A stretch of DNA of 64,000 nucleotides from Stegostoma tigrinum (lineage: Eukaryota): assembly GCF_030684315.1 (NCBI RefSeq), contig NC_081370.1:47696728-47760727 (forward strand), in the 5' to 3' direction. The notes below the pieces were generated by a model. It searched no databases, was not told the origin of the DNA, and saw only the letters and a list, made by a program, of their open reading frames with translations. Shown piece by piece: positions 60,220 through 61,440 of this stretch. Made by a program: the position numbers and the translations under genes. Numbering within the stretch: the first letter of the stretch is position 1; each line of letters starts with the position of its first letter.

Positions 60220-61440
60220 TCCATATATTAAACATTGGCTAATGCACAGAAAACAGAGTCTGAGAATGAAGGATAAGTCTCACATTGGCAGGCTGTAACT
60301 AGTGGGATACTGTAAGAATTGATGTCAATGTCAATAATTTTGATGAAAGAATTGAATGTAATCTATCCAAATTCTTTTGCTGATACTGATTTATTACTGA
60401 TGCTAAACTGTAAAAAAGATGTACAGAAACAGAGAAAAAAAAAGACAGTTTGAGTGATTGGGAAATAGATTAGCAGAAATAATATAGCGTGACACGTAAA
60501 GTTATCTACTTTGGTTGGTTGGAAAAATAACAATGAGGAATATTTGAGGTAACAAGGTGTAGAGCTGGATGAACACAGCAGGCCAAGCAGCATCACAGGA
60601 GCAGGAAAGCTGACGTTTTGGGCCTAGGCACTTCTTCAGAAATGGGAACCCTGTAGTCCAATGGTATCAATGTGGACTTCACAAGCTTCAAATCTCCCCT
60701 CCCCTGACCGGATCCCAAAACCAGCCCAGCTTTGTCCCTGCCTCCCTAACTTGTCCTTCCTCCCACTTATCCCCTCCTCCCACCCAAGACCTACGCCCTT
60801 CTCCTACATACTAACCTCATCCCGCCTCCTTGACCTGTCTGTCCTCCCTGGACTGACCTATCCCCTCCCTACCTCCCCACCTACATTCACCTTTACTGGC
60901 TCCATCCCTGCCTCTTTGACAAATCTGTCTCCTCTCTACCTATCTTCTCCTCTGTTGATCTTTTAACATCTTCCCCTCTCTACCTATTTATTTCAGATCC
61001 CCCTTCCCCTCCCCCATTTCTGAAGAAGGGTATAGGCCCGAAACGTCAGCTTTCCTGCTCCTCTGATGCTGCCTGACCTGCTGTGTTCATCCAGCTCCAT
61101 ACCTTGTTATCACAAATATTCCTCATTGTTGTTTTTCCAACCAACCAAAGTCGATAACTTTACCTGTCACACTACATTATTTCTGCTAAGCTATTTCTCA
61201 ATCACTCGAACTGTCTGCTTTTTTTTCTCTGTTTCTGTGCATCTTCCTTATAGTATAGTATCAGTAATAAATTAGTATGACCAAAAAATTTGGATAGATT
61301 ACATTCAATTCTTTCATCAAAATTATTGACATTGACATCAATTCTTGCAGTATCCCACTAGTAACAGCCTACCAATGTGGGAATTATCCTTCATTCCTGC
61401 ACTCTGTTTTCTGTGCATTAACCAATCTTTAATCTATGGA
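60220..61440. repeat. Long inverted repeat, arms 60220-60646 and 61013-61440
   Basis: e.g. aagaattgatgtcaatgtcaataattttgatgaaagaattgaatgtaatctatccaaatt vs its exact reverse complement in the right arm; roughly 90% identity by eye. Confidence 0.95.
60547..61112. mobile_element. PLE family A insertion: inverted terminus + 5'-truncated sense copy
   Basis: Minus terminus 60547-60646; sense GINVDF-encoding end and pseudo-LTR 60643-61112; intact hammerhead core 61020-61047. Confidence 0.88.

Follow-up and report, generated by a model that had tools for sequence, protein, structure and literature searches.

A Penelope-like insertion flanked by mirrored target DNA in Stegostoma tigrinum: a possible product of fold-back synthesis at inverted termini

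How a Penelope-like element (PLE) can come to lie between two copies of the same host DNA, placed in opposite orientations, is the question raised by a locus of Stegostoma tigrinum. Insertions of endonuclease-bearing PLEs are described as carrying an inverted pseudo-LTR and an optional tail of 30-40 bp (PMC3846280, PMC8557442). An initial annotation of the window, which is the whole 64-kb stretch of DNA that was analysed, proposed that the CR1 sequence to the left of one PLE reappears inverted on its right. The features of this locus are as follows:

59888..60545, forward strand: piece of a decayed CR1-type LINE from its reverse-transcriptase region; it is the native target and covers profile positions ~85-790, by nhmmer and shuffle test
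60219..60545, forward strand: left flank arm of 327 bp, from which the inverted copy was probably templated; by BLAST it reaches 60217, and the outer boundary is placed from the ends of run X3 contigs
60546..60646, reverse strand: short inverted PLE terminus of 101 nt, without the 33-nt tail
60643..60646, unstranded: TGGG, 4 nt of microhomology where the inverted terminus and the body of the PLE meet, by comparison with the longer family copy 22262-23453
60643..61113, forward strand: 5'-truncated PLE body, comprising the last codons of the endonuclease ORF, a pyrimidine-rich 3' region and a tail-less terminus
61114..61440, reverse strand: right flank arm, inverted copy of 60219-60545, by alignment and profile; BLAST extends it to 61443
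61444..61610, forward strand: CR1 3' end, before which ~560 profile positions are missing, by alignment and profile

The inverted repeat with its mirrored target flank is real. The segments 60217-60646 and 61013-61443 align in inverted orientation by BLAST with 89.8% identity over 432 columns (E 4e-164), which upholds the inverted duplication of ~327 bp of CR1 flank across the PLE, the layout of ~430-bp arms around a 366-nt spacer and the arm divergence of about 10% that had been described. Each arm is composed of ~327 bp of decayed CR1 and 101 bp of PLE terminus, and no other close-spaced inverted pair in the window is as long, pairs of separate copies of one element being excluded. The flank arms are about 90% alike, whereas the best match to another CR1 in the window is 41 nt at 78% by BLAST, or 66-70% in gapped alignments; within the window, the two flanks are thus closer to each other than to other CR1 copies. 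The same ~22 CR1 profile positions are absent from both arms in the profile alignment. The repeat content of the window looks shark-like, and other inverted structures also occur in it. Two older inverted pairs (17217-17842 and 18522-19339; 79% alike, 235 and 388 nt) are nested with a ~680-nt spacer and are probably separate repeat copies, and a self-complementary stretch of 150 nt at 56743-56894 is made of two arms of a second repeat family that is related to 17186-17450 and 35440-35539.

The structure was also sought in sequencing runs. The stretch is wholly or partly present in 14 of the 17 runs listed, and four runs were examined as contigs: X11 and X12 from the same species, which may be the source of the assembly itself, and X3 and X7 from a related organism, here called organism A. 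The X11 contigs cover 58900-60343, 60344-60568, 61087-61316 and 61317-61528 with no differences, and the same tiling with at most one difference was found in X12. The contigs of both runs break at the 60-nt stretch common to the arms, and the contig 61317-61528 bridges the outer junction. The 366-nt spacer is spanned by no listed contig, and the overlaps into the PLE measure 21-27 nt. Organism A differs from the window by 5.7% in the single-copy flank (75/1316). Its right PLE junction is present in both runs (61093-61236) and its outer junction in run X3 only (61412-61503). The presence of these junctions in organism A dates the structure to before the two organisms diverged. For the left PLE junction no contig of organism A is listed and parts of 61654-61950 are uncovered, although absence in contigs is not evidence. 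The contigs of the four runs showed no empty or intermediate allele. An assembly gap of 139 N is located elsewhere in the window, at 49213-49351.

The element between the arms is PLE-like, in support of its initial naming as a PLE, and is 5'-truncated with the usual inverted end. The focal body matches the window copies 22298-22798, 20253-20768, 4377-4877 and 1-354. Its translation corresponds to the end of the ORF 22617-23453 on the reverse strand, of which only the last codons are kept. This sibling ORF shows the motif YCIHC...YIGET and matches the Pfam GIY-YIG family (PF01541) with an E of 3e-4 and 21.5 bits, just below the cut-off of 22.6. The PLE copies examined in the window are all truncated before the reverse-transcriptase core. 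No match to a solved structure (PDB) was found, an Rfam search of 60400-61300 with E up to 1 returned no match and no hammerhead ribozyme, and an exact-pattern scan for the PLE terminus detected no stretches in metagenome, viral and prokaryote genome contigs. The focal body and two siblings contain the sequence motif CTGAnGA with GAAA 20 nt after it. Truncation at the 5' end combined with an inverted copy of the 3' terminus is common to the focal copy and five other two-armed copies. Both focal ends start at the same element base and abut the same target base, and the 33-nt tail is absent at both. The two focal termini share no locus-specific change relative to other window copies, and the terminus positions that they share vary among copies.

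A CR1 profile was built from 20 other CR1 pieces of the window, with the focal region masked. With this profile, nhmmer recovered 59888-60520 as one collinear piece (E 9e-16). Continuity of the CR1 over the outer boundary of the left arm was scored at 44.6 bits, compared with 26.3 bits for the arm alone, and none of 100 shuffles of the upstream sequence reached the real score (maximum 32.8 bits). A simpler pairwise test of the upstream CR1 did not rise above the shuffles (310 against a maximum of 331, and 290 against 324). Since the CR1 stays in register beyond that boundary, the left arm represents the native target, of which the right arm is a copy. To the right, the CR1 resumes at ~61444-61459 near its 3' end, and profile positions 790 to ~1347 (~560 positions) are absent, which agrees with the missing segment reported at first. 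The segment 61444-61475 was considered as filler and rejected; no local template was found for it and it aligns with the CR1 3' end. Four tandem units of 71 nt, 94-99% alike, are found at the 3' end of CR1 at 63371-63654.

The point at which the right arm rejoins the CR1 involves three further features:

60537..60546, forward strand: target end GGAATATTT(G), left copy of the putative target-site duplication
61438..61446, forward strand: re-entry junction GGATATTTG, apparently what is left of the target duplication, lacking one A of the left copy
60215..60222, forward strand: ATATTTCC, the reverse complement of which resembles the target end; it holds the GGAA microhomology (60219-60222) at which backward copying would stop

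The left flank terminates in GGAATATTT followed by G, and the outer end of the right arm is GGATATTTG. The initial annotation described the inverted copy as standing in place of a direct target-site duplication; a direct repeat is not entirely lacking, for a remnant is located at the outer end of the right arm (61438-61446) instead of beside the PLE. The exact match of the remnant in the window is 6-7 nt, a length reached by 1.0-2.3% of control positions. Run X3 of organism A has an extra A after 61439, seen in one contig for which the neighbouring letters are not all listed, and the remnant in organism A is probably 9-10 nt, from this one contig of one run. Each strand of the 64 kb contains the 9-mer of the restored remnant a single time, and both occurrences lie at the arms. 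The X3 contig shared by the arms ends one letter past 61440 and the left unique contig is bounded at 60248, so that overlaps of 30 nt would place the end of the shared sequence at 60219; the duplicated flank is accordingly 60219-60545, a length of 327 bp ending in GGAA. This is the first GGAA met on the backward strand from the insertion, where three such sites occur in 1 kb, and of the three sites that tie for the best match to the final 13 nt of the flank, it lies nearest. We read the outer junction, after the fact, as a trimmed target-site duplication reached via microhomology. As GGAA is counted in the remnant and in the microhomology alike, the two form one compound observation. What is new at this locus is that the outer end of the right arm rejoins at the target-site-duplication remnant through GGAA.

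The remnant also bears on the missing CR1 segment. The event was first described as copying the flank and deleting the other side; the flank was copied, but the deletion is doubtful, since the right junction keeps the remnant and the copy therefore seems rejoined to the reciprocal target end. If the remnant has been read correctly, the ~560-nt CR1 gap may be older or later or may reflect a second jump, and need not come from the fold-back event. The gap begins right at the remnant, for which a coincidence or a second jump is required.

The other PLE copies in the window show what this family usually leaves behind. The 33-nt tail is present at exactly one end in all five other two-armed copies, one of them partial. 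Among four single-armed copies, two are tailed and two are tail-less. The contrast between the focal copy and its two-armed siblings (5 vs 1, p=0.17) is suggestive only, and in this sense the focal copy is odd in its tail-less ends. A direct target repeat with a score of at least 8, which is reached by 0.5% of 398 random pairs, was detected in six of the eight other copies with both ends in the window, with best spans of 11-17 nt. ATATTT was not seen in the target repeats of the other copies as a cut-site preference of the family. Mirrored flanks were found at none of the seven other copies tested (scores of 17-27, compared with 497 at the focal locus); the test omitted the copies at 1-400 and 22262-23453, around which no flank repeat was found by whole-window minus-strand BLAST. 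The wider proposal of the initial annotation, that PLEs generate long palindromes from neighbouring DNA, is thus not borne out in the window.

A mini two-armed copy at 58681-58841 has a target repeat of 13-14 nt. Its untailed arm of 92 nt reaches deeper into the element than its tailed arm of 67 nt; being longer, the untailed arm is not a fold-back copy of the tailed arm, and the arm lengths suggest that this PLE family primes from both ends. Additional structures were observed in other siblings. The short arm of the two-armed copy at 19642-19660 begins ~60 nt inside the terminus, and the target repeat of this copy overlaps a sequence that nearly matches the element at that point, the pattern predicted if the second end is primed by microhomology. 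The two-armed PLE at 45926-46241 contains a tandemly repeated tailed arm (~92-nt unit, 97% alike) and a third, partial tail near its centre. Younger PLE copies, 93-96% alike, are found at 4209-4877, 20048-20762 and 22262-23530; these are single-armed, each with a target repeat, and two are tail-less and one tailed. The copies 20048-20762 and 22262-23530 are 1.5 kb apart in opposite orientation.

The divergence of the arms can be read as a clock, though an unreliable one. The CR1 part (60217-60545) contains 27 substitutions in 327 columns (8.3%; 95% interval 5.5-11.8%) and four gap openings, and the PLE part (60546-60646) contains 11 differences in 101 (10.9%; 95% interval 5.6-18.7%), with no difference between the two parts (Fisher p=0.43). 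Equal divergence had been put forward as a sign of one event. The rates indeed do not differ, but the test is weak because the intervals are wide and organism A shows signs of homogenisation. The flank arm divergence of 8.3% is lower than that of the PLE body from its nearest window copy (47/351, 13.4%; p=0.036), which mildly favours a later date or later homogenisation, the nearest copy not necessarily being of the same age. The divergences are compatible with one event (p=0.43) and may also fit a later one (p=0.036 against the body).

A single contig of organism A (133 nt in X3, 113 nt in X7) lies on 61309-61440 at ~2.5-3 times the single-copy depth. Both unique flanking X3 contigs enter this 133-nt contig, and the corresponding span of the left arm is 60219-60351. 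From this contig layout we infer that the arms of organism A are identical over their outer 113-133 nt. The window's arms carry 11 events in the span that is collapsed in organism A (p=4e-4). Conversion from arm to arm in organism A is likely, as the simplest reading, and a much slower rate in organism A would lessen the contrast. Between the window's own arms, an identical run of 60 nt was borderline (p=0.05). Conversion between palindrome arms is known from sex chromosomes.

The explanation preferred here, tentatively and at slightly less than an even chance, is one-off fold-back synthesis primed by the inverted termini, during or right after a two-armed PLE insertion. We infer the enzymatic steps, their order and their timing from the anatomy and the junction sequences, which are observed. 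The PLE endonuclease would make staggered cuts at an AT-rich site in the old CR1. Both DNA ends would prime reverse transcription, 101 nt from the left and ~470 nt from the right, and the two products would be joined at TGGG. The top strand, extended through the element, would then hold the terminus in both orientations, with near-perfect complementarity of 100 nt at a distance of 366 nt; it would fold back on itself and copy its own left flank backwards. After 327 nt, it would reach the first GGAA, which matches the target end, and would re-anneal to the right-hand target end. The element's original right tip, with a tail if it had one, would be bypassed by this re-annealing. In vitro, a PLE protein from Anolis cleaves both strands and extends them, with a preference for ATT, and its two start sites delimit the tail (PMC11167929).

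The first explanation of the initial annotation, in which the inverted termini promote fold-back or strand-switch synthesis, fits all of the junctions. Fold-back is supported by the identical element base and target base at both PLE ends, by the lack of a tail at both of them when all five two-armed siblings are tailed at one end, by the direct target duplications of the siblings when the focal remnant sits at the outer junction, and by the end of the arm at the first GGAA on the backward strand. A single event is supported by the similar divergence of flank and PLE arms and by the lack of locus-specific terminus changes. Fold-back is weakened by its dependence on one locus, by the p of 0.17 for the tail contrast and the two tail-less single-armed copies, by the recognition of the remnant after the fact and by the CR1 gap that starts at the remnant. 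Its placement at the time of insertion is weakened by the flank divergence, which falls below the divergence of the body from its nearest copy. What remains is a repair scar among decayed repeats, and nothing points to a function. It is one old event, and none of the seven other window copies tested had mirrored flanks.

The same geometry could also have been produced by a later fold-back, which is considered unlikely. A finished two-armed insertion would have undergone a template switch during replication or repair at the 100-nt inverted termini, and 327 nt would have been copied before a return near the point of departure. The product would be the same, including the remnant and the lost tail, and local switch-and-return at inverted repeats has been described (PMC7954356). 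The flank divergence is nominally below that of the PLE arm (8.3 vs 10.9%) as well as below that of the body from the nearest copy (p=0.036). However, a later switch adds a second event, which would have to fall after the insertion but before organism A split off, the termini share no locus-specific changes, and the duplex would have to be unwound at both termini, whereas the insertion intermediate would already be single-stranded.

A single reverse-transcription event is a doubtful alternative as well. A 470-nt cDNA made from the left target end would prime itself at TGGG, copy its own first 100 nt and be sealed as a hairpin; this hairpin would be opened by a nick in the flank, or by replication and then breakage, and the new end would join the right target end at GGAA. 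The identical ends would be explained without overwriting, and the 4-nt junction match is what self-priming requires. Self-priming has been proposed for PLE inverted junctions (PMC3846280), and the first of the models for L1 fold-back junctions invokes a hairpin sealed by cDNA (PMC11702581). This route nevertheless needs hairpin ligation, opening and end-joining, and the untailed arm of the sibling 58681-58841 (92 nt), which exceeds the tailed arm, suggests priming from two ends.

Fusion of sister ends is very unlikely. It would involve replication of the cut end, extension of both left ends by the PLE enzyme, their fusion, breakage of the resulting palindrome 327 bp or more away and joining to the right end. 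It corresponds to the second model for L1 fold-backs (PMC11702581) and gives identical target bases on both sides, but the germ line would have to resolve a chromosome-scale intermediate over no more than a few hundred bases, with a return to the reciprocal end. More improbable still is a CR1 palindrome that existed first and received the PLE at its tip, with duplication of the self-complementary AATATT. This hexamer directly flanks the element on both sides, but its repetition follows from mirror symmetry alone, its 6 nt are fewer than the 11 nt or more found in six of eight other copies, and both the missing tail and the outer-junction remnant would be left unexplained. The other explanation in the initial annotation, a flank transduced from a donor locus and copied onto both arms, can hardly be upheld; a 6-nt direct match, ATATTT, straddles both outer boundaries, but it is better explained as target end, and the continuity of the CR1 in register upstream of the left arm, which 0 of 100 shuffles equalled, argues against transduction. 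Least credible of all is a fold-back artefact of assembly or library. The spacer is spanned by none of the contigs listed, but the two arms are 10% different, as was argued from the outset; two runs of the same species contain both arms, each with its own letters, and organism A, at a divergence of ~5.7%, has the right PLE junction as well as the outer one.

Inverted PLE termini are standard, and L1 has already been reported to make inverted target duplications. In the available text on endonuclease-bearing PLEs (PMC3846280, PMC8557442, PMC11167929), the insertions resemble the focal copy in 5' truncation, inverted 3' terminus, short junction overlap and AT-rich target, and their one-end tail and direct target duplications match the sibling copies in the window. 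The inverted repeat of those insertions is element sequence, whereas the focal repeat runs 327 bp into the target. Unlike them, the focal copy has no tail at either end, and the remnant of its target repeat lies displaced, at the distal end of the flank that was copied.

For L1, local inverted duplication of target DNA with a target-repeat feature kept, and fold-back junctions containing cDNA, have been reported (PMC11702581; 10.1101/2024.12.14.628481). These cases are similar to the focal locus in that cut ends are remodelled by self-annealing and neighbouring DNA is duplicated in inverted orientation. The L1 type shows junction microhomology and a target-duplication feature; the candidate counterparts at the focal locus are an exact match of 6-7 nt (null 1-2%), GGAA and TGGG. 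In the local L1 cases, the reciprocal genomic end folds on a 2-bp match on one side of the insert. At the focal locus, by contrast, symmetry is centred on the element: the turn falls within its inverted termini, and the duplicated DNA adjoins the short arm. L1 fold-backs that contain cDNA occur at chromosome scale, somatically or in cell lines, whereas the focal arms are short and the allele is common to two organisms.

Backward copying of nearby DNA and return to the other end are also features of fold-back templated inversions at double-strand breaks (PMC11724301) and of template switches over short ranges (PMC7954356), and their product is likewise an inverted repeat. The fold-back inversions described in yeast (PMC11724301) are mostly 5-34 bp via microhomology, whereas the focal locus would have used a 100-nt primer supplied by the element and has a tract of 327 bp. 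PLE ends flanked by mirrored target DNA were not found described in the literature searched, which included few subscription papers and was without older Drosophila Penelope work. The focal locus works like inverted-repeat-primed fold-back at a retroelement insertion, a geometry not found described for PLEs in that literature.

The way in which PLE integration finishes, and the purpose of the inverted ends and the tail, are stated as unresolved in the available text of the PLE papers. An aberrant product with three readable junctions constrains the final step of PLE integration, and it offers a screen for further cases, in which mirrored flanks would be combined with a lack of tail at both ends and a target repeat out of place. 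It is improbable, though conceivable, that mirrored flanks are a recurring by-product of PLE integration, in which an intermediate unresolved at the tail boundary would fold back into host DNA up to a match to the target end. If cases with mirrored flanks are common, PLEs would be a source of host-DNA palindromes. If the recurrence is true, PLE-rich genomes would hold many element-centred host palindromes, recognisable by their tail-less ends and shifted target repeat, that are later homogenised by arm-to-arm conversion, and such palindromes would expose the otherwise unseen second-strand step of PLE insertion.
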